The position numbers were made by a program, and so were the translations under genes. Of a DNA stretch of 44,211 nt, positions 6,610 to 27,300 are shown piece after piece. Where the stretch lies: contig CAISXI010000325.1 in NCBI GenBank assembly GCA_903889425.1, positions 1 through 44,211 of the forward strand. Direction: 5' to 3'. How positions within the stretch are numbered: the first letter of the stretch is position 1; every line of letters starts with the position of its first letter. The stretch is from an uncultured Roseiflexaceae bacterium. Lineage in GTDB: Bacteria > Chloroflexota > Chloroflexia > Chloroflexales > Roseiflexaceae. The notes below the pieces were generated by a model. It was not told the DNA's origin and did not search any database. It saw nothing but the letters and a program-made list of their open reading frames with translations.

Positions 6610-9384
6610 ATGAATGCACGTTGGCACGCCGTCCGGTTATTGTTGACTGCCACTTGGCGCCGGACAATCCACGCGCCAGCGGCCACGGTGGCGCTCTTGG
6701 TGGCACTTACATTACCGCTCACCCTCGGGTTATTGGTCCCGAGTTATGCCGATGCCGCTGGGTTGCGCATTCTCAATGATCAACTTGCAAATCAAGCCCG
6801 CCAAACCCAACGCCCCGCCATGTCACTGCTCTTTCGCCATGTCCGCGGCAGCAAAGCCGCGCCATGGCGGACGATTTTGGCTGCTGATAATTTGGTCGCC
6901 CAAAACGCCGCCCAATTCTTAGGCATACCGCTCCAGCGCATTACCCGCCACATTCGCACGATTCCGTTGCAAATCATGCTCGTTGACGGTCAATCCGACG
7001 GTATTACGCTCGGAAATGCCGCAATTGCCACACTCATCGGCGTCGAAGATCACATGCGTGTGGTGGGTGGCCGGCTACCCAAACCAACGACCAACCAAAC
7101 CGAAGCCATGATTTCACTCAATAACGCCAATGCACTTGGCCTCAATGTGGGCGACACGATTGTCGCAAGCACTGCAAACGGCAAACAAAGCATACCCATC
7201 ATCATCGTTGGCTTATGGAAAGTGCTAGACCCCACCAGTCCCGATTGGTTGTATGACCCGAGTACACTTGACTCATTGATATTGGTCGATGCACAGAGCA
7301 TGCAAACCCAAGTCAGTGCGGCATTCCCCGATGCCGTCGCCCAAGCTGCCTGGTATTTGCAACCTGCAGCGCTGGCACTTGGACCCGGCGATATCGGCAC
7401 ATTCGAAGCACGCATTCGCACCCTGGCCCAAGAACTAGCCAAAGTCCCCGCCAAACTCGAACGAAGCCCTCTCGAAAGCTTCCACACAGCCCAAACCACC
7501 ATCACCGCCCTCACCATTCGCACCGGAGCCGTAGCTGCGCCGATTGCGTTGCTGGCGTTGTTTTTTGTGGTGCAACTCGCCACCATCAACTACGAGCGTC
7601 GCCGTGACGAATACGCCTTGCTCCGTAGTCGTGGTGTATCAGTGCTCTGGATGGCCGGGGTAAGTATGATTGAATGGCTGTGTTATGTCACATTAACAGC
7701 CATCATTGCGATTCCGAGTGCTATTTTTGCCACCCAAATCATGTTGCGCACCCAGTCGTTTTTGCAAATCACCACCATAGCCACACCACTCAGTGGGCTC
7801 CCAAGTAATGCGTTTGTTGGTTTCGCGGCCATTGCCTTGATTATTATCGGCTTGGGAATTCGCCCCGTAATCATGTCTGGGCGCAACACCCTCAGTACCA
7901 GTGGCAAAAGCCGTCGCAGTGACCAGCTCCGCTCTGTCGCCCGCCTCTTAATCGAAGTCTTGGTTGTGGCAGCAGTCGGTTATGGCTATTATCAATTGCA
8001 ATCGCAACAATCGCGCGAAGGGGATTTGTTTTCGAACCCACTCACCCTTGCGTTACCCGTGATTACCACGCTCGGAATCGCACTCATCGCCAATCGCATC
8101 ATCCCCTTACTGCTGGTTTTGGCAGAAAAAATCAGCCGGCGCGGTGACAACATTGCGCCAATTCTGGCGCTCCAGAGCCTCGCACGCCGTCCAGAGCGCC
8201 TACAAACCACCATCCTCTTACTCACGCTGACGCTCGGAGTCGGTGGTTATGTGGCGTCAATGGCAGCTACCGTCGACAAAGCCAGCCTCGATGGCTTGCG
8301 CTATCGCATCGCTACTGACACCCAATTCATCGAAACTGCGGCCTCACGCACGACGGCCAGTACTAGCGGCGAACGCTATTTACTCACGCCACTCGGTGCT
8401 CACAAAAAAATCCCCGGTATCCTCGATTATGCCCCGGTGGGAATTTATGCTGCCCGTATCAATCTCGGTGGCAAACAAATCGATACCAACTTGATTGGGG
8501 TAGACAGACGACGCTTCCCAGCAGTAGTGCCCTACTTCCAAGATGAATGGTTGGGCAACAATAACGCCCTCGGTATCTTGATGAATCAACTCGCCCGCAC
8601 GCGTGATGGGGTCATCATTAGCCAAAACATCGCCGGCACCAGTGCCATCGGTGACCGAATTGCAGTTACCTTGGTGGTCGACGATATCGAACAAGAAACG
8701 CGCATGCGGATTGTAGGCATCGTCACCGGTTGGCCCGGCCAATATGCCGACGACCATCCCTTTGTGGTAACGAATCTATCGTTTATTAGCGACGAAATCG
8801 GCTTCATGCCCCCCAGCGATGTGTGGGTGCGACGTGACATCACCGTGTCACTCGACGATCTCTATGCGGCTGCCCGCTCTGCCGCCATCCCCGTACTCGA
8901 CATCATCGACCTTGAAGTGGCCCGCTTACAAGAATTTACCCGCCCCGAACGCCAAGGGCTGTTTGGGATGTTGAGTGTGGGCTTCGTGGCAGCCACCGGG
9001 TTGAGCATCATGGCTATTTTTGTGAGTGCCCTGGCGACCCTCAGACAACGCTCAATCGAGTTAGGGATGCTCCAAGCGATGGGTATGCCGATGCAAAGTG
9101 CCCGGAGTGTCATTATCATCGAACAAAGCATTGTGACTGGCAGTGGCATCATTTGTGGTTTGATTGCGGCAATCGGCACTGCCCGTACTATTTTGCCGTA
9201 TATCAAAGCAGGCGTCGCCCCTCACCCCGACGTCCCTAGCAATCAGCCGCTCACTGCATGGGGGACATTGTCGGTGATGGTACTGATCTACGCAGTCGCC
9301 TTAGCAGGCACCGCACTACTCGCATTCAACACCGTACAACGCCTGCGTATCGCTGATGCGGTCAAGCTCGGTGACGAAAACTAG
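6610..9384 (+). CDS. ABC-transporter permease of the FtsX/MacB type with two FtsX modules (924 aa), no fused ATPase
   Basis: ORF track. N-terminal TM helix followed by a large extracytoplasmic region. Two hydrophobic bundles, the first followed and the second preceded by an FtsX-like motif (YERRRDEYALLRSRGVS and LRQRSIELGMLQAMGMP). The start lies 2 nt after the adaptor gene stop. Confidence 0.8.
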   Translation: MNARWHAVRLLLTATWRRTIHAPAATVALLVALTLPLTLGLLVPSYADAAGLRILNDQLANQARQTQRPAMSLLFRHVRGSKAAPWRTILAADNLVAQNAAQFLGIPLQRITRHIRTIPLQIMLVDGQSDGITLGNAAIATLIGVEDHMRVVGGRLPKPTTNQTEAMISLNNANALGLNVGDTIVASTANGKQSIPIIIVGLWKVLDPTSPDWLYDPSTLDSLILVDAQSMQTQVSAAFPDAVAQAAWYLQPAALALGPGDIGTFEARIRTLAQELAKVPAKLERSPLESFHTAQTTITALTIRTGAVAAPIALLALFFVVQLATINYERRRDEYALLRSRGVSVLWMAGVSMIEWLCYVTLTAIIAIPSAIFATQIMLRTQSFLQITTIATPLSGLPSNAFVGFAAIALIIIGLGIRPVIMSGRNTLSTSGKSRRSDQLRSVARLLIEVLVVAAVGYGYYQLQSQQSREGDLFSNPLTLALPVITTLGIALIANRIIPLLLVLAEKISRRGDNIAPILALQSLARRPERLQTTILLLTLTLGVGGYVASMAATVDKASLDGLRYRIATDTQFIETAASRTTASTSGERYLLTPLGAHKKIPGILDYAPVGIYAARINLGGKQIDTNLIGVDRRRFPAVVPYFQDEWLGNNNALGILMNQLARTRDGVIISQNIAGTSAIGDRIAVTLVVDDIEQETRMRIVGIVTGWPGQYADDHPFVVTNLSFISDEIGFMPPSDVWVRRDITVSLDDLYAAARSAAIPVLDIIDLEVARLQEFTRPERQGLFGMLSVGFVAATGLSIMAIFVSALATLRQRSIELGMLQAMGMPMQSARSVIIIEQSIVTGSGIICGLIAAIGTARTILPYIKAGVAPHPDVPSNQPLTAWGTLSVMVLIYAVALAGTALLAFNTVQRLRIADAVKLGDEN

Positions 9385-13746: not shown

Positions 13747-13956
13747 CTCCTTATATATAGGTACTATAGCATCGTCTACGCCTATTGGTCAATTATTTGC
13801 ATACCCAAACAAACATACGCTCGTACGGACAGCATCTGCTCTGGTCTAGACGGCACATATGGCTGTTTTGTTCCATGACAGCGTCACGTACTTTTATAAT
13901 TCCCACATTGCCATATTTTGTGTAAGAATAGACACACGATTAACAAAGGAAATCAA

Positions 13957-15924
13957 ATGAGCAACGAACGACTCGAATCCCTCATAGGTGGCTCACCTGC
14001 CCTATTTGACATCATCTCAAAAGCCGCCGGCCCCAGTGGTGAGCTCCCCCTCACCGAAGATATGCTCCGCGATAGCCCCAGTGGTGATTTGTTTGGCTGG
14101 ACCCAAAACGTCGGCATGGGCTGGGAGCCAGCCGAGCTCACTCGCACCCAAGTACTCATCCTCAGCACCCAAGGGGGCATCCGCGAAAACGATGGCAGAG
14201 CCATCGCACTCGGCTACCATACGGGGCATTGGGAAATAGGCTTGCAAATGCGGGCTGCTGCCGAAACACTACGGGCCAACAACGCCATGCCCTTTGCAGG
14301 CTATGTCACCGACCCCTGCGATGGCCGTACCCAAGGCACCGAAGGGATGTTCGACAGCCTGCCCTATCGCAATGACGCGGCTATCGTATTTCGCCGACTC
14401 ATCCGCTCACTCCCCACCCGCCATGCCGTCATCGGTGTGGCCACCTGCGACAAAGGGCTGCCCGCCATGCTCATCGCCTTGGCTGGCACCCCCAACCTGC
14501 CCACCATCCTCGTACCGGGTGGCGTCACCTTGCCCCCTACTGATGGCGAAGACGCCGGCAAAGTGCAGACCATTGGAGCACGCTTCGCCCAAGGCGAATT
14601 GTCGCTCCAAGAGGCCGCCGCCCTCGGCTGCCGGGCCTGTGGCTCCCCCGGCGGTGGCTGTCAGTTCCTCGGTACTGCCGCTACTGCCCAAGTGGTTGCC
14701 GAAGCGTTGGGAATTGCCTTGCCCCACTCAGCCCTGGCCCCCTCGGGACAACCGATATGGCTTGAGTTAGCGACTGCGTCTGCACATGCCGTCCTCGCCC
14801 TGCAGAAACGCAAAATCACCACCAAGCAAATCATTACACCGGCCGCAATCCAGAACGCCATGGTGGTGCATGCCGCCTTTGGTGGTTCGACCAATCTGCT
14901 GTTGCACATCCCCGCAATTGCCCACGCCGCCGGCCTGCCGCGCCCGACGGTACAAGACTGGGAACGCATCAATCGCCAAGTGCCACGCCTCGTCGACGTG
15001 CTCCCCAACGGCCCACGCAACCATGTCACCGTCCAAGCCTATATGGCTGGTGGCGTGCCCGAAGTAATGCTCCACTTACGTGATTTGGGATTGCTCGATA
15101 CGTCGGTACTCACGGTGAGTGGCGAAACACTCGATAGTGTGCTTGACTGGTGGCAACATTCCACCCGCCGCGCCACGGTGCGCCAAATGCTCCGCGAGCG
15201 CGACGGTGTCGATCCCGATGATGTGATTATGTCACCCAGCCTAGCCCAAGCCCGCGGACTCACCTCGACCGTCACCTTCCCCCAAGGCAATCTGGCCCCC
15301 GAAGGCTCGGTCATCAAAAGTACCGCCATCGATGCGCGGGTGGTGGATGCTGATGGGGTGTACCGCAAAATCGGTCCGGCCAAAGTCTTTTTGCGCGAGC
15401 GTGACGCAGTGCGGGCCATCAAAGGCCAAGGCGACAAACAAGTGGTCCCCGGCGACATCATCGTGTTGATTTGTGGTGGGCCGCTTGGGACGGGTATGGA
15501 AGAAACCTACCAAGTCACGTCAGCGCTCAAACATCTCCGTTGGGGACGCGAAGTGGCGGTGATTACCGACGCCCGCTTTTCGGGGGTGAGTACCGGCGCC
15601 TGTATCGGCCATGTGGGACCTGAAGCCTTGGCTGGCGGACCGATTGGCAAAGTACGCGATGGTGACATGATCGAAATCATCGTTGACCGCAATAATTTGG
15701 TGGGCAGTGTCAATTTGATTGGCGAAAACAACGTCGCCGTTGATTGGCAAACCGGCGCTACCATCCTGGCTGCCCGTGGCATGCGTACTGACTTACAAGC
15801 CCATCCCAATTTACCCGACGACACTCGTTTGTGGGCGGCGTTGCAACACGTCAGTGGCGGCACTTGGGGTGGCTGTGTCTATGATGCCGACAGCATCATC
15901 GCCCGCCTGAACAACCCGCAATAA
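13957..15924 (+). CDS. yjhG: IlvD/Edd-superfamily dehydratase of the YjhG/YagF D-xylonate dehydratase type
   Basis: Near end-to-end resemblance, from memory, to E. coli YjhG. Shared blocks: [17 protein letters not shown]...[122 protein letters not shown] 13957 is preceded by aaagga; the track's TTG at 13918 is less likely. Confidence 0.9.
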
Positions 15925-15931
15925 CATAAAA

Positions 15932-15966
15932 AATCGGGGTGTGGCAGAAGTTGCCACACCCCGATT
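15932..15966. terminator. bidirectional intrinsic terminator hairpin
   Basis: 15-bp stem aatcggggtgtggca / tgccacaccccgatt with a 5-nt loop, between convergent stops 15924 (+) and 15982 (-). The flanking A-run gives a U-tract for the minus-strand transcript. Confidence 0.7.
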
Positions 15967-15981
15967 ACTTCCCAGCTCTAT

Positions 15982-16941
15982 TTAGCGTTTGGAGGCACGA
16001 TAGCCGGCTTGCTCGGCTGCTGCAGGGGTATCAAAACAAATCACCGCACTATTGCGGGTCATGGCATAAAAGGCCCCTGTGGGCAGATGATAAATCATCG
16101 TTTTGGCGTTGGCTTTGACTTGCCCGTCTTGACACGGGAAGCTCGGCACGGGGGTCTCTGTTAATGCCGCCGTGATTTGCACCACTTGCACAATCACGAC
16201 TGCCGTCGGCGTGCTATTGACGGTATCAGTCACCGCCACTACTTGGGTTGTGGTAGGTGCAGATGCGACGGGTAGGGGTGTCACACTTGCCGTATGCACC
16301 ACACTGCCGCCCTTAGTGCGGAGCGTTGGGGCGGGGATGGTTGCCGTAGGTGCAGCTGCCGCCTGTGCCGGGATGAGCTGCCAAAAATAGATTCCAATTA
16401 CGAAGATAGCAATCAGTAAACTCGCACCAGCAATCATATAGAGCACCGGTGATTTGGTTGGTACTTGGACAGGGACTTGATACCGTTGCATACGCATTTC
16501 GTCACGCAAGGCGACTACTCGATCGACGTTACTCGCCCGGATAGCAGTCAACAAGCGGGCAATATTGTCGGCGAGTCGGTCTACATCATCGGCCGAAAGT
16601 GGGGCTTGATGCGCCCAACGATTACGAATCGTGCGTAGTTCAAACAGCAGACTGCGCTCGTTGGGCGTTAATACCCGACTAAACGTCGAATCCCAGTGCG
16701 CCAAAATCACGCGTACCAAGGCAGTCGCATCGAGTTGAGCCTGTTGACTGTCAACAGGCAAGCGCACCTCGGGAGTATTGCGGAGCACACTATACCACTC
16801 GGTGCCATGGGTTGTTTTGAGCACCGCCATCACAAATGGGGCATATCCCTGGCGGAATTCCGCGAGGAGTTGATCTATTTGAATGCGTCGCACCGGATCA
16901 CTGGTCATACCAAGCATCTCCTCGTGGCGATGATACTGCAC
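15982..16941 (-). CDS. single-pass membrane protein: cytoplasmic Swt1-like HEPN domain, TM helix, T/P/A/V-rich linker, C-terminal sunset-like domain
   Basis: ORF track, 319 aa. HEPN Rx4-6H motif in LLFELRTIRNRWAHQAPLSADDVDRLADNIARLL (codons at 16606-16626). TM VLYMIAGASLLIAIFVIGIYFWQLI is preceded by R/K residues, placing the N-terminus inside. The C-terminus CQDGQVKANAKTMIYHLPTGAFYAMTRNSAVICFDTPAAAEQAGYRASKR resembles the sunset domain consensus. The likelier start is ATG 16908 (MTSDPV), 9 nt after gaggag; the track start at 16941 is GTG. Confidence 0.8.
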   Translation of the reverse strand: MQYHRHEEMLGMTSDPVRRIQIDQLLAEFRQGYAPFVMAVLKTTHGTEWYSVLRNTPEVRLPVDSQQAQLDATALVRVILAHWDSTFSRVLTPNERSLLFELRTIRNRWAHQAPLSADDVDRLADNIARLLTAIRASNVDRVVALRDEMRMQRYQVPVQVPTKSPVLYMIAGASLLIAIFVIGIYFWQLIPAQAAAAPTATIPAPTLRTKGGSVVHTASVTPLPVASAPTTTQVVAVTDTVNSTPTAVVIVQVVQITAALTETPVPSFPCQDGQVKANAKTMIYHLPTGAFYAMTRNSAVICFDTPAAAEQAGYRASKR

Positions 16942-17003
16942 ATCACATCAATTGTCGGTGTAGTGATTCACGGCTGTGCAGGGAGTTTTTTTCAATACAT
17001 CCA

Positions 17004-17900
17004 TCATACACTCTGCTCATGAAAACGATTACGAAACGCGGCATACACGGGAGTCATTGGGGCAATATCGGGTATCGCAAAATCGATAATCGCAAATGCG
17101 CGTGTGGCGCGGGACTCTAACGCCACTTGAAAAGCGGTGGCAATTAATTCCGGAGTGTGACCAAATTCCCCCGTCCCCCACGCACCAAGAATCAACACAT
17201 TGGCATTGGTCGTAGCTGCCGCTTCGATGATCCGGGTTGCACGGCGTGCCATTTGGAGCGGGATTTCGGCTTCACGCTGCGGCATATATAACTGCACATT
17301 CGTGGCATGCACCGCTGCGGCACTAACCATAGCATAGTGCAACGGCGTTTCGAGCAAATCACCTTCATGCCCACGAAATACCGGTACGTGGGGAGTAACA
17401 ATCACGGTATCGTCATAAAATGGATTGGTGCGATGGGTACGATTGCGATACCACGAATGGGAGCCGAGGCAATGCATTAATCCAGATGACCGTGCCAAAG
17501 CAGCTTCTTGGGATTGCACGCCGTGCAACCACCCACCACCCAGATTGCGCGGGTTGGTAAAATTCAACACCGCCACCCGATAGCCCCGCCGTTGCCGCGC
17601 ATGTGCGACCATTAATGCGGTTTGATTGTGGACAAAGGTCATTGCTTGCGAGTATTTGGCTGTCCCTTGTGGAATCACCGAATCGGGTCGAAACGTCACC
17701 ATCTGCGCATGCGCTTGGTGTAACGACTCTTGTATATCGTGCTCCGTACCCGCTTCGGTAATATAACTTCCGCGCGTAATAATTTGCTGCGTCGCACGGC
17801 CAACCATTTCTGCCGCATCTATATCCATTAAAAAATCTTCTTTGGTAAGCACCGGAAGACTCAATGTTAACTTACGCCGCATACTTACTCCGACATTCAT
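17004..17900 (-). CDS. TIGR02452/DUF2263-type macrodomain protein (bacterial PARG-like)
   Basis: ORF track, 298 aa. Blocks VAVLNFTNPRNLGGGWLHGVQSQEAALARSSGL, TPHVPVFR and VLILGAWGTGEFGHTPELIA match the family pattern LNFAS..PGGG....G..AQEE / LGAWGCGVFGN as I remember it. The alternative start ATG 17882 (MRRKL) has a better SD (ggag). The stop lies 62 nt upstream of the HEPN gene on the same strand. Confidence 0.8.
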   Translation of the reverse strand: MNVGVSMRRKLTLSLPVLTKEDFLMDIDAAEMVGRATQQIITRGSYITEAGTEHDIQESLHQAHAQMVTFRPDSVIPQGTAKYSQAMTFVHNQTALMVAHARQRRGYRVAVLNFTNPRNLGGGWLHGVQSQEAALARSSGLMHCLGSHSWYRNRTHRTNPFYDDTVIVTPHVPVFRGHEGDLLETPLHYAMVSAAAVHATNVQLYMPQREAEIPLQMARRATRIIEAAATTNANVLILGAWGTGEFGHTPELIATAFQVALESRATRAFAIIDFAIPDIAPMTPVYAAFRNRFHEQSV

Positions 17901-17952
17901 TGAAGTGATCCCACATGGCTCGCCCCGGTTACACTATAAACTGCATCATATC

Positions 17953-17988
17953 GTTTTCTCACGACCACATATGTGGTCGTGAGAAAAC
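17953..17988. promoter_or_regulatory. 36-bp perfect palindrome, candidate shared operator between divergent genes
   Basis: gttttctcacgaccacat|atgtggtcgtgagaaaac, exact reverse complement and centred on catatg. It lies between divergent starts 17900 (-) and 18042 (+). It abuts the TGgTATAAT element on the plus side and lies just upstream of a tatagt -10-like hexamer (17933-17938) on the minus side. Confidence 0.6.
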
Positions 17989-17990
17989 TT

Positions 17991-17999
17991 TGGTATAAT
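17991..17999 (+). promoter_or_regulatory. extended -10 promoter element TGgTATAAT for the HDAC-fold gene
   Basis: tggtataat lies 43 nt upstream of ATG 18042. The SD gaggggg sits 8 nt before the ATG. Confidence 0.5.
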
Positions 18000-18041
18000 T
18001 AACGTATTACGCTAGATTATATTGTAGAGGGGGAAATTCAA

Positions 18042-18923
18042 ATGTCAAATTATCGAATTTTTTACCATCCCGACACCATAAGCACGACCCATTCATTTGA
18101 TACCACGCGCAAAGGAGCAGATGTCGCTGAAGCATTAGCAAGCCAAGGATGGCTGATTAGTACACCGACGCCGTTGAGTGTCGCTGAAGCAACGCAAACA
18201 CATAGCGCAGACTATGTCGATGCGATAGTACGTGGGACACCCCGTGATTTAGCCAAATCGCAAGGATTTCCGTGGGATGCGCAGATGTGGCACTCAGTAG
18301 CTGCCCAAAACGGGGCCTTGCGCGATGCAGTCCTGAGCGCCATCACGGGGATACCGGCATATGCAGTAAGTGCAGGGTTCCATCATGCCCGGAGCAATCA
18401 CGGAGCGGGGTTTTGCACCTTAAATGGGTTGGCGATAGGGGCAGATATTGCCTTAAAAAACGGTGTCCGCAAGGTGTTTATCCTCGATGTAGATGCCCAT
18501 TGTGGCGGTGGCACCTATAGTATGGTACACGATTATGCACACATCGTACACCTTGACTTATCTGTGCATCACTATGACCAATACCCACCCACGTCACCGC
18601 ACCAATTATTGTTTGTCAATCATGCCAGCGATTATCTCACACGCCTGCAACAGCTACTGAGCTATGCAGAAGTTGATTTACAGGCTGGTGATCTGGTGAT
18701 TTACAATGCCGGAATGGACCCCTATGAAGGCTGTGACCTCGGCGGGATGCCTGGCATAGATGGAGTGCTCTTGCAACAACGGGAAGCGCTGGTGACGGCG
18801 TGGATTCGTCGGCACCAACTGAACGTGGCAGCGTGTCTGGCTGGTGGGTATAACGGTGCGGATTTCTCCCATCAAGAACTCATCGCCATGCACGTCATGA
18901 GTGTCACGACGCTCTTGCAGTAA
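18042..18923 (+). CDS. histone-deacetylase-family (arginase/deacetylase fold) Zn-dependent deacylase, compact 293-aa form
   Basis: Catalytic blocks read directly: SAGFHHARSNHGAGFCTLNG (His-His pair), ILDVDAHCGGGT (Asp and His metal ligands), YNAGMDPYEGCDLGG (Asp ligand), LAGGYNG (catalytic Tyr). Confidence 0.85.
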   Translation: MSNYRIFYHPDTISTTHSFDTTRKGADVAEALASQGWLISTPTPLSVAEATQTHSADYVDAIVRGTPRDLAKSQGFPWDAQMWHSVAAQNGALRDAVLSAITGIPAYAVSAGFHHARSNHGAGFCTLNGLAIGADIALKNGVRKVFILDVDAHCGGGTYSMVHDYAHIVHLDLSVHHYDQYPPTSPHQLLFVNHASDYLTRLQQLLSYAEVDLQAGDLVIYNAGMDPYEGCDLGGMPGIDGVLLQQREALVTAWIRRHQLNVAACLAGGYNGADFSHQELIAMHVMSVTTLLQ

Positions 18924-18941
18924 GCGTAATTGCAACAGTCC

Positions 18942-19778
18942 TTAGTGGTAGTATGTGTGACCGGCAAATTGATACCAAAACGGCGAGACGTGGGATTGGG
19001 TGGGATTGATATCCGGTATGGCAAAATCAATCACAGCCAGTCCCCGTGGATTGATCGTGGTCAAGGTTTGGGCAAATAACTGGGCAAGCAATTCGGCATC
19101 ACTCTGCATCGAAATGTTTACGACCAGCACATTGGCACCCAACCCACTAGCCGTCTGAATGACGTGAGTAAACCAACGCTGAAATTTGCCCGGGTCAATG
19201 TGCAGAAACGGTCCTAGCCGCTGCGGATAATTGAATTGCGTGGTAATTGCATCGACATACCACGGCCGTGCCAGTAAATCACCCACATCAGTGCGAAATA
19301 CCGGCAATTGTGGGGTGACTACGAGCGCATCATCAGCATTTTCACGTTGGCGATACAAGCCGTTTTGGATGACACAATCGGCAATCCCTGATGCAAACAA
19401 TAACGCGTTGTCCGGCATGCGGGCAGCAATAGTCGCAGGATGGCACAACCACAACGGCGTAGCATTGACCAAGGCCACACGGTAGCCACGCCGATACCAG
19501 GCCGCGGCCACGGTCAATGCGGTCTGATTGTGGACCATTGTGACTGTTTGTGGGAAAGAACGCCGTGGCGACAACAATGCATCCACAGGGATCCGGCGCG
19601 TAGTAGCCCGCGTTTGGGCATGCGCCTGTGCAATCGAAACGGTGGCTTGATTGGCGGTCATATACCATCCCCGTGCGACGATTTCTTGCGTGGCAAATAC
19701 CAAGCGTTGTTGCACAGTAGAGTGTATGTTGATCGAATCAACGTCAAGCGGGGGCAAATGAAGTGCAGGAACATTCAT
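18942..19778 (-). CDS. degenerate TIGR02452-like paralogue lacking the GGG...QEE and GAWGxGxFG loops (probable pseudoenzyme)
   Basis: Collinear with the 17004-17900 protein: ATQEIVARGWYMT, MVHNQTALTVAAAWYRRGYRVALVN, TPQLPVFR, LAVIDFAIPDINP. The catalytic loops are replaced by ATPLWLCHPATIAARMPDNALLFAS and VLVVNISMQSDAE. ATG 19778 has the SD gaggg. The track's longer ORF to 19997 runs through the upstream terminator hairpin. Confidence 0.75.
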   Translation of the reverse strand: MNVPALHLPPLDVDSINIHSTVQQRLVFATQEIVARGWYMTANQATVSIAQAHAQTRATTRRIPVDALLSPRRSFPQTVTMVHNQTALTVAAAWYRRGYRVALVNATPLWLCHPATIAARMPDNALLFASGIADCVIQNGLYRQRENADDALVVTPQLPVFRTDVGDLLARPWYVDAITTQFNYPQRLGPFLHIDPGKFQRWFTHVIQTASGLGANVLVVNISMQSDAELLAQLFAQTLTTINPRGLAVIDFAIPDINPTQSHVSPFWYQFAGHTYYH

Positions 19779-19961
19779 ATCACAGCCCTCATATTCAGTA
19801 ATTTCCCAAACCATTTTCAATTTCTGGGCATATCTTGTTTTAGCACGGAAAAAACGAATTATTTTCGGCATTTTTGACGAATTAGGATAATAGTTATGCT
19901 CAGGTGCCAATGATAGCAACACACCGCGATAAACAGCGTGCGCCGTAATATCAGGGAATAA

Positions 19962-19993
19962 GCGAAAGGAGCCGGTACACCGGCTCCTTTCGC
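19962..19993 (-). terminator. terminator hairpin downstream of the fasciclin gene
   Basis: 14-bp stem gcgaaaggagccgg / ccggctcctttcgc with a 4-nt loop, 36 nt downstream of the fasciclin stop (20029) on the minus strand. Confidence 0.55.
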
Positions 19994-20028
19994 TCACAAA
20001 CCATTAAGATAACACTAACGAGTGCTAT

Positions 20029-21423
20029 TTATTCTGGCAACAGCACAGTGTCGATTACGTGAATCACGCCGTTGGTGGTCATGACGTCAGTAATGATTAC
20101 TTGGACGTTTTTGTTCAGGTACACTTTGCCATCTTTGACCGAAATGGCGATCGATTTACCAGCGAAGGCAGTGTCTGCCATCTTGCCATCGAGGGTAACC
20201 ACATCGGCGGCCATCACGTTGCCTGAGACTACGTGGTAAAGCAACACATTCTTGAGGGTCTCGAGGTTCTCTGGCTTGAGCAGGTTTTCGACGGTGCCAG
20301 CGGGCAATTTGGCGAAAGCCTCGTCAGTTGGCGCGAAAACGGTAAAGGGTCCTTCGCCTTTGAGGGTATCTACCAGCCCAGCAGCCGTCACCGCAGCTAC
20401 CAAGGTAGTGAAGCGACCATCGGCTACTGCGGTATCAACGATGTCCGCAAGCTTGGCTGGGGGCAACAATACCGTATCGATTACGTGGATCACACCGTTG
20501 GTGGTCACGATGTCGGTGATAATTACTTGCACGTTTTCGTTCAAGAAAACATTACCATCTTTTACCGAAATGTTGACGGCGCTGCCAGCAACAGTGTCGG
20601 CCGTTTTGCCATCGAGGGTGACCACATCAGCTGCCATCACGTTGCCTGAGACTACGTGGTAAAGCAAGACGTTCTTGAGGGTCTCGAGGTTCTCGGGCTT
20701 GAGCAAGTTTTCGACGGTGCCAGCGGGCAATTTGGCGAAGGCTTCGTCGGTAGGAGCAAAGACGGTGAAGGGTCCGGCGCCTTTGAGGGTATCGACCAAA
20801 CCGGCGGCCGTTACTGCAGCCACTAAGGTGGTGAAGCGACCATCGGCTACTGCGGTATCAACGATATCCGCAAGCTTGGCTGGGGGCAACAATACCGTAT
20901 CGATTACGTGAATCACGCCATTGCTGGTCACGATGTCGGTGATAATCACTTGCACATTTTCGTTCAAGAAAACGTTGCCGTCCTTTACCGAAATGTTGAC
21001 GGCGCTGCCAGCAACAGTGTCGGCCGTTTTGCCATCAAGGGTGACCACATCGGCGGCCATGACATTACCAGCGACTACGTGGTAAAGCAACACATTCTTG
21101 AGGGTCTCGAGGTTCTCCGGCTTGAGCAAGTTTTCGACGGTGCCAGCGGGTAATTTGGCGAAGGCTTCATCAGTAGGAGCAAAGACGGTGAAGGGGCCAG
21201 CACCTTTGAGGGTGTCTACTAGCCCGGCGGCCGTTACAGCCGTCACCAGGGTGGTGAAACGACCATCTGCTACAGCGGTGTCAACGATATCCATGGCAGC
21301 GGGGACAGCAGTAGCAGGAACGACTGTTGCCGTAGGTGCGGCGGCAGGGGCGGCGCCACAAGCGGCCAAAACAAGCGAAGTGAACAACAATACGAACAGC
21401 GAACCAATTTGCAAACGTTTCAA
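20029..21423 (-). CDS. lipoprotein with three tandem fasciclin (FAS1) domains
   Basis: ORF track, 464 aa. Lipobox LVLAAC. Three units of about 141 aa carry FAS1 hallmarks (FTTLV..V..AGL...L...[34 protein letters not shown]). TTG start, 5 nt after ggag. Confidence 0.9.
20032..21294 (-). repeat. three in-frame tandem 423-bp units (the last is 417 bp), one per FAS1 domain
   Basis: Plus-strand shadow ORFs restart at 20252, 20675 and 21098, a period of 423. Direct comparison of the units shows scattered, mostly third-position differences. Confidence 0.9.
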
Positions 21424-21511
21424 CGCAGCTCCATTTCATCCGGGTGATTATTTACCCAAGACTAACAATACTTGTACATACTTCATAAAATTTATCGTAC
21501 ATACATTAGTA

Positions 21512-21539
21512 ACTATATGCAAAAAGTGTATATAGTCAA
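21512..21539 (-). promoter_or_regulatory. sigma70-like promoter for the fasciclin gene (TTGACT - 16 nt - TATAGT)
   Basis: The minus strand reads ttgact atatacactttttgca tatagt, about 90 nt upstream of the TTG start at 21423. Confidence 0.45.
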
Positions 21540-22004
21540 GCGTTTTTGGGCTCTATAATCAAACGCTCATGCAGTGATAAACATGGTTAAGGATATTGTT
21601 CTCACCAAAAAACAGGTGCATTCCCTGTCATTTTGGAGAAACGGTAGCAAAGAAATAAATGTATTCAGGCTGTTTTGAACGGCTATAGTAACAAAAAATC
21701 TGTGCTTGCGGTAGCATTTTTATTAATTGTCTAGTTACCACAACCAACATTGAAAGAAAAAAGTGTATCAAAATTGTATTCATAAACAGTTTTTATTCTC
21801 ATCGCATAATCATCATATACTAAGCAAAGTAGACAGTTCACTTTGCGAATGCGCCCCCTCAATTACCTCATCTAATCGAAAACGAACATCATACGCGGTC
21901 ATCGGCGTACGCGTGCGACCGCTACTGTTATCACAGGAATGTCGGTGTACGTGCGAGCACGGGGTTACGTCATGCGGTGTAATCGTTATACCGTAGCCAC
22001 AAAA

Positions 22005-24269
22005 TTACAATTTGACCCACCAAGGCACTAACGAGGGTGGCGCCTTGCGTTTGGATTTACTGGTAGTGCTGTTACGTACTGGCGCCGGCCAATCACGTAT
22101 TTGCGGGTCGTTGATTATGTCATCTAACTGAGGTTGATTGGGTAAATAGTGTGTGAGTTGTTGGCGCAATACCGGCGATGCTCCATTGCGGATCAATGAA
22201 TCGTGTAGGTTGCCCAACGGCTTGCCACGATGGGCTGCCACCACATGATGCATGATGGCCACTGTCGGTTTAAGGTGCATTTCTTCGACAAAGCGCGATA
22301 CTTCGGGGATGGTGCTATTGGCTAGATCACCGGCGCGCGGACTGAGCGACACGCCGATATAGACTTCGCGCTTGGCGCGGGTGATGGCCACATAAAACAA
22401 CCGCCGTTCGGTTTCGACTACGCTCCCGCCGCGGGTGGGCGGCGTAGCGCTCTTGGTTTTGTCCCATACCGTCAATTCTTCGCTGAGTAACACGGGCATA
22501 TAGCCTTCGTGGGCGCGTGGGATAAATACATAGTCGTATTCGAGGCCTTTGGTGCGGTAAATGGTGGTAAACAATATTTGGTGCTCGAGTGGTGCACTAA
22601 AAGTATGATCAAGCCCTGCAAAATGGGTCACAAAATCACCGACAGCTAGCCCAGTACCCCGCGCATAGCCGATGAATTGATTGACACAATTAATGCGATC
22701 ACTTGAATCAGCGCCATTACCATAATAATTATGGAAATGTTCCATGTAATTAGTGCTATCGACGATGATTTGCAAGGCCTGATGGGCCGGCTGGGAGGTA
22801 CGCCACAATTCATCCACCCGCATCAATACGGTGATGAGTTGACTAATCCGCTCGCGACCAGGGCGGTTGAGTGGCGATTGAGTAGGATTGGTGAGACCAT
22901 GGAGTAATTCCCCCAGTGACATGCCATAGCGTTGGGCATCAGTGAGTGATTTTCTGATGGTATCGAGGGCCAAATAACGGTTGGGCAGGTTGATAATCGC
23001 CATCAGCACCCGGCCGATTTGCTCATCGACCAAATCGTGCCATTGTTGGCCAGCCTTGAGGTAATCGACCAAAGTAGCAATTTCACGCCGCTCAAAAAAG
23101 GGTTTTCGCCCCAACACACGATAAGGAATTTTGCGGGCGAGGCAGGCGGCTTCGAGCCCTTGCAATTGACTAAACGCCCGCCCCAGCACTACCACTTGGC
23201 TGGGGTCTTGGGTGCGTTGCACCAATGTCACTAACTGGTTACACAGCATGGTGTCGAGTTCGCTGGTTTGTTCGGCCTGCTCATGCACCATAAAGACATC
23301 AGTGTGATGCAACACATTATGTGCAGTAAGCGGTTTGGCGACTCGACTGCCGTTGCGACTAATCACGTTGAGGGCAACTTGGGCGAGGAGCGGCCCAAAC
23401 CGGAATGAATGTGACAAGGTGTAGTCGATGACTTGCTTGCCAAACACCTGACCCGTCATGGTCTGCAACATATAATCGGGGCGAGCACCACGCCACTCGT
23501 AGATAGTCTGATCATCGTCACCCACCACCATTACATCGGTATGGGGATTGACGAGGAGCTCGATGAGGCGTTGTTGGCCGGCATTGACGTCTTGGTATTC
23601 ATCGACAATCACGTAGCGCAGATGACTGGTGATTTGATGACGAAACAAGGGGAAGTCGGTGAGAAGCGACACTACAATCGGCACAAAATCATCAAACCCA
23701 ACAGCATGGCGTTTGTGTCGCTCGGCTTCAAAACGGATATAGACATCGACCAAGCCCGGTTCGCCGCTACTGGTGGCATGGTCGCGGTCGGGAGGGATGA
23801 GTTCACCCTTCCAGAGTCCGATGGCCATCAGCGCCATTTCAGCGTCGATGGTATTGAGAGGCAACACGCCTTCTTTTTCGAGGGCTTGGATTGTGCGATT
23901 GGCGAGGATACGACCCATCTCGCTGTCGTCAGCGGTCCACAATTCTTGGGGTTCGGGCATCAGTCCCACTTCGACGGCCCGGCGCATGATTTTGAAAGCA
24001 AACGAGTGAAATGTGTCGACACCGGGGTGTGTCGACTGATCAATACCGATATCGAGAAGCTTGGTGGTAAATTGTTGGCGCGCCAGCACGTTGAACATCA
24101 CGATTTGGATAGCGTGGCGTGACGTACCAGATTGAAGTAGTTGATTGACCCGATGCGCCATGGTGGTGGTTTTGCCAGAGCCAGCCACCGCCAACACCCG
24201 GGCATGGAAGCCAGTGGGATGAGCGACGACGGCCTGTTGTTCGGAGGTGAGTTGGTGCATACTATTCAT
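22005..24269 (-). CDS. UvrD/Rep/PcrA-type superfamily-1 DNA helicase
   Basis: ORF track, 754 aa. Walker A AGSGKTTTMAHR, motif II YVIVDEYQDVN, motif III VVGDDDQTIYEWRGA, motifs V/VI TIYRTKGLEYDYVFIP and ERRLFYVAITRAK. Confidence 0.9.
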   Translation of the reverse strand: MNSMHQLTSEQQAVVAHPTGFHARVLAVAGSGKTTTMAHRVNQLLQSGTSRHAIQIVMFNVLARQQFTTKLLDIGIDQSTHPGVDTFHSFAFKIMRRAVEVGLMPEPQELWTADDSEMGRILANRTIQALEKEGVLPLNTIDAEMALMAIGLWKGELIPPDRDHATSSGEPGLVDVYIRFEAERHKRHAVGFDDFVPIVVSLLTDFPLFRHQITSHLRYVIVDEYQDVNAGQQRLIELLVNPHTDVMVVGDDDQTIYEWRGARPDYMLQTMTGQVFGKQVIDYTLSHSFRFGPLLAQVALNVISRNGSRVAKPLTAHNVLHHTDVFMVHEQAEQTSELDTMLCNQLVTLVQRTQDPSQVVVLGRAFSQLQGLEAACLARKIPYRVLGRKPFFERREIATLVDYLKAGQQWHDLVDEQIGRVLMAIINLPNRYLALDTIRKSLTDAQRYGMSLGELLHGLTNPTQSPLNRPGRERISQLITVLMRVDELWRTSQPAHQALQIIVDSTNYMEHFHNYYGNGADSSDRINCVNQFIGYARGTGLAVGDFVTHFAGLDHTFSAPLEHQILFTTIYRTKGLEYDYVFIPRAHEGYMPVLLSEELTVWDKTKSATPPTRGGSVVETERRLFYVAITRAKREVYIGVSLSPRAGDLANSTIPEVSRFVEEMHLKPTVAIMHHVVAAHRGKPLGNLHDSLIRNGASPVLRQQLTHYLPNQPQLDDIINDPQIRDWPAPVRNSTTSKSKRKAPPSLVPWWVKL

Positions 24270-24395: not shown

Positions 24396-27300
24396 CTAGC
24401 GGTGGTAAAAGGAGGAAAGATCCGGCCAAATCACGTTACTGACTTGTGCTTGGGCGGATTTTGGCAGCGGGTATGGGGTAGCTGATCTGGTTGGGGTTGA
24501 TGGTATCGGATACGCGGTCACCGTCCTCGTGGAGGTCTTGGTGGCAGTTGGCGCTGACTGGGTCAATACAATACTCGTCTGGCTAGCCCGTACTGCAAAC
24601 CATGTAGCAGTCAACGTCTGCACATAGAATGTCGGGCTTTTGCGAAACAATGCAGTCGCTGTTTTGGCGATAGCAGAGCGGGTAATCATCAATGGCGTGC
24701 GCGTAATCGATGGCGTATTTGTTTCACCATTATTCGGGGTAACCGTATACGTAATCGTAGCAGTCAAGGTTTGTGTAGCCGTCTGCGTTGCTGTGGCAGT
24801 ATTTGTACGGGTATTTGTCGGCGTACTCGTATTGGTCGCCGTATTACTCGTTGTCGGGGTATTACTGGGCGTCAGTGTATTGCTGGGCGTCAGCGTTTTG
24901 CTCGGTGTCAGCGTTTTACTGGGCGTCAGCGTTTTACTTGGTGTCAGCGTTTTACTTGGTGTCAGCGTTTTGCTGGGCGTCAAACTCGGAGTCAACGTCA
25001 TCGTGCCGGGCAGATAGGCGACAACTATTGTTAGCGTGGCCGGAATACGGGTTTTGGTTTGCCACGTGGCCGTTTTGGTGGCAGTCAATGTCACCGTAAA
25101 CGTCGGTGATTTTGTGAGCGTGGCACTGGTCGTAGCGGTCAATACCACACTACTCGGATTGGTGTTGTTGTACAGCATCCCAATTGTGGCATGTGATAAC
25201 GGCGCTGCATAAAGGAGCAAATCATCGAGTTGACCTTTGAAGCCACTCCCCGCTTCTGGTGCGCGTCCCACAAACAGGGTGCCACTATCACTGTAGGTGG
25301 CGGTGATTATTTGCGGGGTTTGGGCGTCTACTGACAGACCTAATTTGCCAGCAATTTTATCAAACCGACAGACATAGAAATGCCAATTGGTGTCACTCGC
25401 AATGCTCCCATTGATCTTTGTAGCTCCAATTGCACAGTATGGCTTATTATCACTATTAAAGCCGGCAGTAAAGCGTTTGGCTGCGGTCGTCCCGTGTACG
25501 ACTACGATATTGTTGCTACTATCGCTGCGTTTAGCCCAATATGCCACCGTAAAGCCGTTGGTGAATAGTGGGTTTTCACTCAGTTGCATTTGTTCGGTGC
25601 CGGTAAAGACCAATGCTTCGTCGTCATGACTGCCAATCACTACTTCCCCACATGCATTGGTGCCGGTACAGAGTAAGCGGGTACGATTGGGGGCCAGGCT
25701 TTGGAACGCAATATTATCGAAATTCACATCAACGATCCGATCCCCAGTAGGCAGATTGGTACCGTCTTGGAGTTGGCTATCGGTCAATGCAACTTTGTGG
25801 ATGACGATGTCATCGAGGCTCCCTACCAAACCACTGGCATTGTCATTGCGCCGCCCAATCACGACTGGTGCCGCAACACCACTAAATGAGGCGCTAGCGA
25901 CATCACTCGCAACAACGATGCCATCACGATAAAGCTTGCGGACTAAGCTTGTTTTATCAAAGGTACAGGCGTAGTGGTGCCAATTATTATCGGTATACCA
26001 GCTGGTAGTGCGGAGATCATTACCATAAAAGCTACAGTAGATACGATTTTCGGTATCCATACCCATCGTAAAATATTTACTTTGGGCAAAGGTAGTACCG
26101 ATACTCAGCGCAACATCATTGGTATTGACCCGGTCACGCCGCATCCAATAGCTTACCGTAAAGGATGTCCCCGTCAAATTAATCGTCCCTGTACTATTGA
26201 GCTCATCGCCACTTGTGTCGTTAAATCGGGCAGCCCGCTTGCGCATACCATTGGGGTCGCTTTGCGGGCACGCAGTGCTGGCCGCACAGGTATATGGGCC
26301 AGCGGCGCCTGTGTATTGCGTGACCAAGGCACGGTCATTCATGCTAAACCAACCAATTTGGTTTGCCACAATGGCCGCATCACTCGGTCGCATCGTCAGG
26401 GTTGGAATCAGCTGCGGGGACTGGGTGGGGATGCGTGTAGGCATAGTAGTACCTACGACTGGCACATCCTTGGTCAGCGCCACAACGATACCTGCGCCGG
26501 CACGGATTGCTACCACATTGCGGTTGGCATTCAAGGTAGCGAGTTGACTACTCGTCCCACTCGGCACATCCCCCCATGCCACGAGCGTCCCATCGTCACG
26601 TAGGGCAATACTCGATTGGTCACCGGCGGCAATTGCAACGACACGCGACTGTGCGAGGTACGGCACATCGGCTTGACCGCTGTCGTGTTGCTCGGCACCC
26701 CAGGCCACGACCCGACCGTCACCACGTAGCGCGAGCGCGTGGTAGCGACCAGCAGCGATTTCGACTACTCCACTTGCCAGATTGGGGGGAGTCAACAATC
26801 CTTCATCGTTCGAGTTGGCCCATACTTGGACCAGCCCATCGTCACGGAGTGTTACCGCGAAATCTGGACCGGCGGCAATATGGCGAACCATTGCTGGCGA
26901 GGTGATAGCAAAGCGATTTGACCACACCTTACCGTCACCCCGCAACAGGACGATATGGCCATCATTAGCGCGTAATTCATTGATATTGCGGGCAAAGGAA
27001 GGAGGGATGACTGGGGCATTTGTCCCCCACGCAATCACGGTATGATCGCGTTTGAGGACAGCACCAAATTCATCACCAAGTGCAACAGCCTGGACATTCA
27101 CCGTCACCGATACTGGCAATGTTTGCCCTGAAATACTTGCCGATTCATTGAGGGTTAATGAGTTGTCGTTATGCACAATGGCAATCGTATCGGTCGTCAC
27201 TGCCACATCACTGATATCGGTCGCACTTAAGGCAGGAATATCTCCCAGTGGCCAGGTACTATTGCCGTCATAAGTTGGCAATGTGCCAAATACTGGCAAA

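Follow-up and report, generated by a model that had tools for sequence, protein, structure and literature searches.

The Macro-TM (transmembrane) effectors of type II Thoeris systems are macro-domain sensors that act in defence by NAD-derived signalling. In enzymes of the bacterial-type PARG family (DUF2263/TIGR02452; 3SIG, DRB0099), the macrodomain is hydrolytic; ADP-ribosylated RNA and DNA ends are substrates of these proteins, and the gene for DrPARG belongs to a DNA-damage-induced repair operon (PMC11833690). For membrane-bound HEPN proteins, a role as stimulus-gated RNases has been predicted (Anantharaman et al., 2013, PMC3710099), and the HDAC-fold deacylases of class IV/cluster 5 include a lysine de-decanoylase from V. 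cholerae, VcHdaH (9GKV, cluster 5b), that is grouped with HDAC11 (Graf et al., 2024, PMC11532494; the cluster definitions used here are taken from this study). We analyzed a locus in which relatives of these families are encoded side by side. It lies on contig CAISXI010000325.1 of an uncultured Roseiflexaceae bacterium, the whole 44,211 nucleotides of which we refer to as the window, and it comprises genes for a membrane-anchored HEPN protein, a PARG-like macrodomain protein, an HDAC-fold deacylase and a degenerate PARG-like paralogue (pseudo-macro). Each domain stems from a known family; their combination in one cluster has not been described before. Consistent with a preliminary description of this DNA, which knew of no system combining these domains, the searchable literature contained no paper joining HEPN, PARG and HDAC. 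The data that follow lead us to favor, tentatively, the reading that the cassette serves as a stress or nucleic-acid-damage unit, co-regulated and inherited vertically within one freshwater Roseiflexaceae-like clade.

Composition and distribution of the cassette

The genes of the cassette and the region shared by two of them are arranged in the window as follows.

15982-16941, minus strand: HEPN(Swt1)-TM-sunset gene; the longest open reading frame (ORF) has 319 aa
17004-17900, minus strand: PARG-like gene, encoding a PARG-derived macrodomain of the TIGR02452 family with an eroded catalytic signature
17901-18041, no strand assigned: divergent PARG-HDAC control region of 141 bp
18042-18923, plus strand: HDAC-fold Zn-deacylase gene, class IV/cluster 5-like
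18942-19778, minus strand: pseudo-macro gene, a degenerate PARG-like paralogue; the ORF is open to 19997

The four genes, the 141-bp divergent region, the 36-bp palindrome within it and the 18 nt that separate the stop codons of the convergent HDAC and pseudo-macro genes were all found as the preliminary description had given them. For the pseudo-macro gene (ORF 18942-19997), homologues support a start at 19778. The HEPN gene is likely to begin at the ATG at 16908 (Met12) and not at 16941, since Met12 is nearly invariant and forms the first residue in most orthologues. The gap reported between the macro gene and the HEPN gene, which follows it on the same strand as described, is then about 95 nt and not 62 nt.

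Conservation of this arrangement is graded. The window and 15 other contigs (16 in total) have an intact divergent PARG-like/HDAC pair, and a HEPN-TM-sunset gene accompanies it in 14 of the 15 loci with enough flanking sequence, locus L089 being the only one without it. The pseudo-macro gene occurs in four lineages only (the window, L005, L089/L090 and L091), and it converges on the HDAC gene every time. Synteny in other genomes had been named as a check of the module; it exists in genomes of one clade, but the conserved unit is the PARG-like/HDAC pair, followed by the HEPN gene and lastly by the paralogue, and not the set of all four genes. In L089 (1952-4960) the HEPN gene is cleanly gone and a dehydratase gene follows about 70 nt after the PARG-like gene; this locus retains the HDAC gene, the pseudo-macro gene and the CCACAAATGTGG operator.

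A PARG-like gene stands divergently alongside every HDAC homologue of 50-98% identity. We rejected the idea that this pairing is a general trait of the HDAC subfamily: relatives of about 45% identity (L006; L007 from Hoyosella; L008 from Planctomycetes; L092) have neither a PARG nor a HEPN neighbor, and their upstream partner genes are mutually unrelated. The HEPN-TM-sunset family is small (68 clusters), every source-named cluster comes from Chloroflexales or a Roseiflexaceae metagenome-assembled genome, and the family was seen only on contigs that also bear the PARG-like/HDAC pair. When 185,579 species genomes were scanned, the full-length HEPN protein was recovered from 8 species, with the trio of HEPN, PARG-like and HDAC genes present in 8 of 8; the genome scan with the HEPN alignment returned 80 loci, 72 of which encode HEPN_Swt1-DUF499 proteins unrelated to the module. 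Viral contigs and plasmids, searched with the full-length HEPN and PARG-like proteins only, contained neither full-length HEPN proteins nor close PARG-like relatives; the matches obtained there were to the HEPN domain only or to distant canonical PARGs, the HDAC and pseudo-macro proteins not having been used as queries in these collections. All occurrences of the cluster fall within a single shallow clade of uncultured freshwater Roseiflexaceae-like bacteria (Chloroflexia), in which it is inherited vertically. The public titles of three contigs, L011, L012 and L015 ('uncultured Klebsiella sp.', 'Thermoflexus hugenholtzii JAD2'), clash with their Roseiflexaceae-like content and are probably mislabelled.

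Sequence features of the encoded proteins

The domain assignments of the preliminary description held up in profile searches, with the pseudo-macro protein alone scoring below cut-off. The PARG-like protein matches PARG_cat_microb (PF10021; E 9e-30, 104 bits, cut-off 23.5) and TIGR02452 (E 1e-52, 179 bits, cut-off 50), and the TcPARG and DrPARG structures match it at E of about 1e-31, with about 33% identity to solved PARGs. The signature of these enzymes is GGG-X6-8-QEE, with E114/E115 (PMC8120803); its catalytic second Glu is E115 in TcPARG and E112 in DrPARG, and mutation of the main catalytic Glu abolishes PARG activity (PMC11833690). In the window this residue is replaced:

17502-17540, minus strand: signature region GGGWLHGVQSQEA (aa 121-133), reading GGG-X7-QEA, with the catalytic second Glu changed to Ala

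Among PDB chains the protein is best matched by 3sij, whose sole difference from wild-type T. curvata PARG (3SIG) is QEA in place of QEE. Residues Q131-E132-A133 of the window protein align with the QEE of 3SIG and the QEA of 3SIJ, so that Ala133 takes the place of residue 115 there. The loss extends to the whole module: GGG-X6-8-QEE is intact in 0 of 16 module members versus 138 of 145 outgroup representatives obtained by an exhaustive search. The signature has decayed in several ways.

GGG..QEA: window, L001, L009, L010, L011
GNG or GSG..QEA: L004, L012
QSD: L005
QEH: P0200
QEA with altered loop: L089, P0202
QAT: L091
YPE or YRE, GGG loop deleted: L013-L016, P0199

We also considered whether every member keeps at least one acidic residue at the QEE position, an idea ruled out by the QAT of L091. 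The closest canonical relative, P0201 (43% identity), stands in an unrelated genomic context. The diphosphate-binding loop (GAWGCGxFGN) is kept as GAWG(T/C)G in most PARG-like orthologues, the variants being GGWGIA in L091 and STWGCG in P0202. Since this loop is retained in most members and the catalytic signature is lost, the PARG-like protein is, judged by its sequence, probably a binder of an ADP-ribose-type ligand and no canonical glycohydrolase. The reversal of ADP-ribosylation that had been envisaged for it is unlikely to proceed by the canonical mechanism, the GGG-X6-8-QEE signature being lost in every member.

The pseudo-macro protein is more decayed still. Its scores against TIGR02452 (E 1e-8, 34.9 bits) and PF10021 (16.7 bits) fall below both cut-offs, and it has kept neither the GGG loop and QEE nor the GAWGCG loop for diphosphate binding. 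Its nearest relatives, itself aside, are the PARG-like proteins of the module; its gene goes back to an older duplication of the macro gene and has persisted in some lineages. The paralogue had rightly been called degenerate, but it is not alone in this, as the catalytic signature is missing from the PARG-like protein too.

The shared profile family, the GAWGxG loop and the proximity of nucleic-acid repair genes connect the module with bacterial-type PARGs. It departs from them by the lost signature and by its partners, which are HDAC, HEPN, UvrD and AddAB rather than a ligase and Pnk; the operon used for comparison, that of DrPARG (DRB0099), is the damage-induced ligase-PARG-HD/Pnk operon.

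The HDAC-fold protein matches Hist_deacetyl (PF00850) at E 1e-27, and its best solved relative is V. cholerae HdaH (VcHdaH, cluster 5b; 9gkv) at E 6.4e-28, whereas class I/II HDACs match at 1e-13 or worse. All 11 aligned module orthologues have the HH pair, D-x-H, D and GGY, which lie within the conserved blocks GFHHA, LDxDAHxGGGT, YNAGMD and LAGGY. By sequence, its active site (Zn and catalytic residues) is intact, and the protein is assigned to cluster 5/class IV by its closest relative. Deacylases of this class, such as human HDAC11 and VcHdaH, share with it SAGFHH and AGGY, which replace the RPP and XGGY of other classes; identity to them is low, however, and none of the described members has a macrodomain or HEPN gene as its partner. 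In L092 (879-2801 and 5585-7229), an outgroup HDAC gene (45% identity) overlaps an upstream gene whose product has weak similarity to the UDG superfamily. A gene for a fusion of Inositol_P and ADP_ribosyl_GH is found 3.5 kb from this HDAC gene, and the locus may be another neighborhood of a deacylase and an ADP-ribose hydrolase.

The third conserved protein joins a HEPN domain, predicted to be intracellular, to a small C-terminal domain across a single predicted TM helix.

16540-16869, minus strand: HEPN domain (aa 25-134) with RNxWAH (Rx4H) at R106-H111; AlphaFold2 (AF2) predicted local distance difference test score (pLDDT) >90
16378-16449, minus strand: predicted single TM helix (aa 165-188); helical in the AF2 model, hydrophobic segment at a conserved position
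15985-16119, minus strand: C-terminal sunset domain (aa 275-319), an Ada-N-like small alpha/beta domain, predicted to be extracytoplasmic

Its match to HEPN_Swt1 (PF18731) has an E of 3e-24 and 85.9 bits (cut-off 27.5), and in the motif R106-N-R-W-A-H111 the residues R106, N107, W109, A110 and H111 do not vary among 17 family members. As Arg and Lys residues cluster only on the N-terminal side of the TM helix, the protein would adopt an N-in/C-out topology. The linker (aa 190-266) is variable, rich in Pro, Thr and Ala, and disordered (pLDDT <50 in the AF2 model). The C-terminal domain matches sunset (NF051437; E 2.6e-13, 49.8 bits, cut-off 27; aa 275-318) and weakly Ada_Zn_binding (PF02805; 7e-4, 20 bits, below the cut-off of 23). 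Its AF2 model (pLDDT 76) resembles the N-Ada structures 1wpk, 1u8b and 1zgw (probability 0.96-0.97, TMq 0.62, E about 0.1); the four-Cys Zn site of N-Ada is not kept in the sunset domain, where only C270 and C302 are conserved. A Foldseek search of the full HEPN model against the PDB gave generic helical bundles, and the sole sensible match was N-Ada, to the C-terminal domain.

With the described membrane HEPN proteins (PMC3710099) it shares a cytoplasmic Abi2/Swt1-type HEPN domain with Rx4H, TM segment(s) and a small external or terminal domain. Its architecture, HEPN followed by one TM helix, a long low-complexity linker and sunset, falls outside the three membrane-HEPN groups of that study and is tied here to PARG-like and HDAC genes. 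The HEPN_Swt1-DUF499 ATPase proteins (Ava_2192 family), which occur in restriction-modification and defense loci, belong to the same Pfam HEPN family (30-40% identity). They differ in being soluble AAA+ ATPase fusions of about 1100 aa that are spread over many phyla and viral contigs, with no PARG or HDAC gene nearby. A Swt1-type HEPN domain N-terminal to a DUF499 ATPase was encountered in the genome loci L017-L088 and on the viral contigs L094-L101.

Control region and genomic neighborhood

Two elements stand out in the region between the divergent PARG-like and HDAC genes; flanking hairpins and a conserved neighbor are listed with them.

17953-17988, no strand assigned: perfect 36-bp palindrome with the conserved core CCACATATGTGG at 17965-17976
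17994-18012, plus strand: TATAAT -10-like box (17994-17999), then ACGTATTACGC (18002-18012)
15932-15966, minus strand: hairpin with 15-nt perfect arms between convergent genes; T-tract on the minus strand, then TTTTATGTTA
19961-19994, no strand assigned: hairpin with 16-nt perfect arms between the fasciclin gene and the pseudo-macro start, just past the fasciclin stop codon
22005-24269, minus strand: UvrD/Rep/PcrA-family superfamily 1 helicase gene (PF00580, PF13361), a conserved neighbor of the cluster

The core CCACAWWTGTGG is present in 11 of 14 independently retrieved loci, in exactly one copy each and always between the PARG-like and HDAC genes; the L004/L011/L012 subclade lacks it, and 1.02 Mb of unrelated loci contained 0 occurrences. 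The palindrome is a probable operator. Because the sequence of its core is conserved, and not merely its pairing, a protein operator is favored over an RNA hairpin. We take the core to be unlike LexA, RDRM and DriD-type operators, and no regulator is claimed for it. No credible second site was found upstream of UvrD or AddB when up to 2 mismatches to CCACAWWTGTGG were allowed. An exact scan of metagenomes with a 20-mer of the operator returned two further copies of the same intergenic region (L105, L106); another match, L104, is an unrelated terminator hairpin on an AT-rich contig and was discarded, leaving no further regulon member.

The second motif, ACGYNNNACGY, follows right after the -10-like box in 12 of 12 PARG-HDAC intergenic regions, about 46-fold above the locus background. 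In 5 of 10 loci, UvrD or AddB is likewise preceded by this motif. The interval 17994-18012 is a probable HDAC promoter with a second operator. The motif takes the form of three tandem heptads (ACGTAAT ACGTGAT ACGTTAA) in L005 (7922-7942), which suggests a repeat-type operator with a 7-bp period.

Terminator hairpins had been proposed to bound the cassette on both sides, and both hairpins exist. The one at 15932-15966 is a likely intrinsic terminator of the HEPN gene, since it has a T-tract on the minus strand and was a terminator-like site in the scan. The second (19961-19994) has no T-tract and was not flagged by the terminator scan. An Rfam scan of 15500-22500 gave nothing at gathering score.

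Genes for UvrD-like and/or AddB/AddA-like proteins flank the cassette in every locus with enough flanking sequence, despite local rearrangements. A UvrD orthologue adjoins the module in L001, L005, L009, L013-L016, L091 and L105, while the arrangement of AddAB varies: UvrD or the pseudo-macro gene may stand between it and HDAC, or it may follow directly 3' of HDAC. In L004 (6061-9918) the HDAC gene is followed after 115 nt by addB-addA on the same strand, and the gap is shorter still in L011 (about 7998-8933) and L012 (about 8057-8952); HDAC-addB-addA is a probable operon in these three loci.

Several neighbors of the cassette are particular to the window. Between the pseudo-macro and UvrD genes, and in the window lineage only, a gene (20029-21423, minus strand) encodes three near-identical fasciclin domains behind an N-terminal lipoprotein-like signal. 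Two giant ORFs (24396-29270 and 29282-44089, both minus strand; 1624 and 4935 aa) contain RCC1 repeats, Laminin_G_3 and F5/8-type C domains. The fasciclin and giant RCC1/LamG genes stand where relatives bear AddAB, the giant ORFs occupying the position that addB-addA has beside UvrD in L001 and L009, which suggests an insertion or rearrangement in the window genome. On the other side of the cassette, the neighbor first taken as 'IlvD-like' (13918-15924, plus strand) is a YjhG/YagF-type D-xylonate dehydratase (1151 bits). This enzyme is 82-98% identical across the clade and served us as a yardstick of how shallow the clade is.

Our Pfam scan took in most ORFs of the window that have 180 aa or more and lie on the likely coding strand, shorter ORFs not being scanned exhaustively. 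The ORFs covered yielded no integrase or transposase domain; the window has a uniform GC content and no tRNA genes. The scanned ORFs contained no ART (ADP-ribosyltransferase), SIR2 or TIR domain, and the precomputed Pfam calls for related loci showed no ART or SIR2 either, in agreement with the cognate transferase having been reported as missing. Reversible ADP-ribosylation modules (DarTG, SirTM-macro, DraTG) possess such a transferase and differ in this from the present locus. A search of PADLOC-DB v2.0.0 with the four proteins gave no match at E <= 0.01 (only PDC-M34B, E = 0.05), which bears out the earlier view that the cassette is not a known defense system; the helicase neighbor had only generic GajB/UvrD matches, and a GajA partner was not identified among the ORFs scanned.

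Possible roles of the cassette

In a vertically inherited stress or nucleic-acid-damage unit, the reading to which we give preference, the cassette would be expressed jointly with break-repair helicase-nucleases. The HDAC11-like deacylase would act in the cytoplasm as the catalytic 'eraser', the pseudo-PARG would bind ADP-ribose, an ADP-ribose-like ligand or an adduct and serve as an adaptor or regulator instead of a hydrolase, and the membrane HEPN protein would provide signal-gated RNA cleavage at the membrane. A role in DNA damage had been named in the preliminary description as an alternative to phage defense, and it fits better, given the UvrD-like and/or AddAB-like genes that adjoin the cassette in every locus with enough flank. 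Several observations weigh against this reading. No gene for an ADP-ribosyl or acyl 'writer' was found nearby, nor was one for a transcription factor or other regulator. The window itself has no AddAB within 44 kb. The second motif is a short one, and its occurrences ahead of UvrD or AddB come from just two subclades. Identity between the window and L014 is 82% for the xylonate dehydratase and 60% for UvrD, but 50% for HDAC, 50% for HEPN and 47% for the PARG-like protein; the cassette proteins (47-50%) evolve much faster than the dehydratase (82%), and this fits conflict genes too. Finally, in so shallow a clade, gene order could in part reflect common descent and not functional coupling.

The last point can be taken further: HDAC, PARG-like and HEPN proteins might act independently and be neighbors by descent only, without forming a functional module. 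The shallowness of the clade, with a neighbor identity of 82-98%, agrees with this, as do the unrelated neighborhoods of the HDAC relatives of about 45% identity and the loss of HEPN without loss of the remainder. Yet the pair stays contiguous while pseudo-macro, fasciclin, the position of UvrD and the dehydratase vary, and the HEPN-TM-sunset family is restricted to contigs that bear the pair. Moreover, two conserved motifs lie in the shared intergenic region, which argues for common control of the pair. We regard descent alone as a rather unlikely explanation.

Phage defense or abortive infection, the function first put forward for the locus, strikes us as about equally improbable. Here, the dead PARG-like protein(s) would sense an ADP-ribose-derived signal or the product of a phage ART and license the HEPN RNase, which the HDAC protein would reset or modulate. 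HEPN families are common in defense contexts (PMC3710099); the Rx4H motif is intact in this protein, the pseudo-enzyme macro paralogues could be sensors or decoys, and the cassette proteins are fast-evolving relative to their neighbors. Against this stand the lack of a significant PADLOC match for the four proteins, the failure to find a signal generator (TIR, ART, SIR2 or cyclase) in the window ORFs scanned, and the dispensability of HEPN in L089. Full-length HEPN and close PARG-like relatives were also missing from viral contigs and plasmids, where HDAC and pseudo-macro were not searched. The fixed chromosomal position and vertical inheritance in one clade, with no sign of horizontal spread and no mobile-element or defense-island features, argue against a typical phage-defense system.

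Another conceivable role is eraser-type immunity against interbacterial toxins, in which the PARG-like protein would strip ADP-ribose from ART-modified RNA or DNA and the HDAC protein would remove acyl groups placed by acyltransferase toxins. Canonical bacterial PARGs do protect from the RNA-ADP-ribosylating toxin RhsP2 (PMC11833690), and the HDAC active site is intact. We nevertheless hold this to be very doubtful: the catalytic Glu, whose mutation abolishes PARG activity (PMC11833690), is Ala in the window, and the signature is degraded in various ways in 16 of 16 members, the QAT of L091 leaving no acidic residue at either Glu position. Just as improbable is a toxin-antitoxin-like pair in which, by analogy with HEPN-MNT, binding of the upstream PARG-like protein would restrain a HEPN RNase toxin, for although the two genes are adjacent and co-oriented and the HEPN motif is intact, the gaps between them measure 78-190 nt without overlap, no MNT or other known antitoxin family was found, the HEPN protein is anchored in the membrane, L089 has kept the PARG-like gene without HEPN, and inheritance is vertical and not mobile. 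In HEPN-MNT and other HEPN toxin-antitoxin pairs, HEPN is set beside an MNT nucleotidyltransferase or another known antitoxin; its neighbors here are the PARG-like and xylonate dehydratase genes, and no nucleotidyltransferase domain was found.

Beyond the stress or damage unit that we favor, a more specific proposal can be framed, to which we attach less weight than to either descent alone or defense. The cassette would then be a new signaling and effector system, in which PARG-derived pseudo-enzyme(s) read an ADP-ribose-derived ligand or adduct, for instance on damaged or toxin-modified nucleic acid, and control the membrane HEPN RNase, with the HDAC11-like enzyme as a co-regulated catalytic partner that is transcriptionally wired to AddAB/UvrD. 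Such a system would resemble type II Thoeris Macro-TM effectors in the idea of a non-hydrolytic macrodomain that reads an ADP-ribose-derived ligand and controls a membrane effector. It would differ from them in that no TIR or signal synthase accompanies the cluster, macro and effector are separate proteins, the macrodomain is PARG-derived, and the cluster is non-mobile.

The main limit on the reach of these findings is their restriction to a single uncultured freshwater Chloroflexia clade. Within it, the adjacency of AddAB/UvrD and the probable operon in three genomes predict that the cassette is co-expressed with these genes after DNA or RNA damage. If the proposal of a new signaling and effector system is true, the cassette would provide the first functional link of a classical Zn-deacylase with macrodomain signaling in bacteria. 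To our knowledge, the physiology of the bacterial class IV/cluster 5 deacylases is largely unknown, and the co-regulated pairing with an intact HDAC11-like enzyme offers a genomic lead on their substrates. The PARG-like proteins form a natural clade of PARG pseudo-enzymes that have kept the nucleotide-binding loop and lost the catalytic loop; should they prove to be readers, the range of uses to which bacteria put macrodomains would widen.

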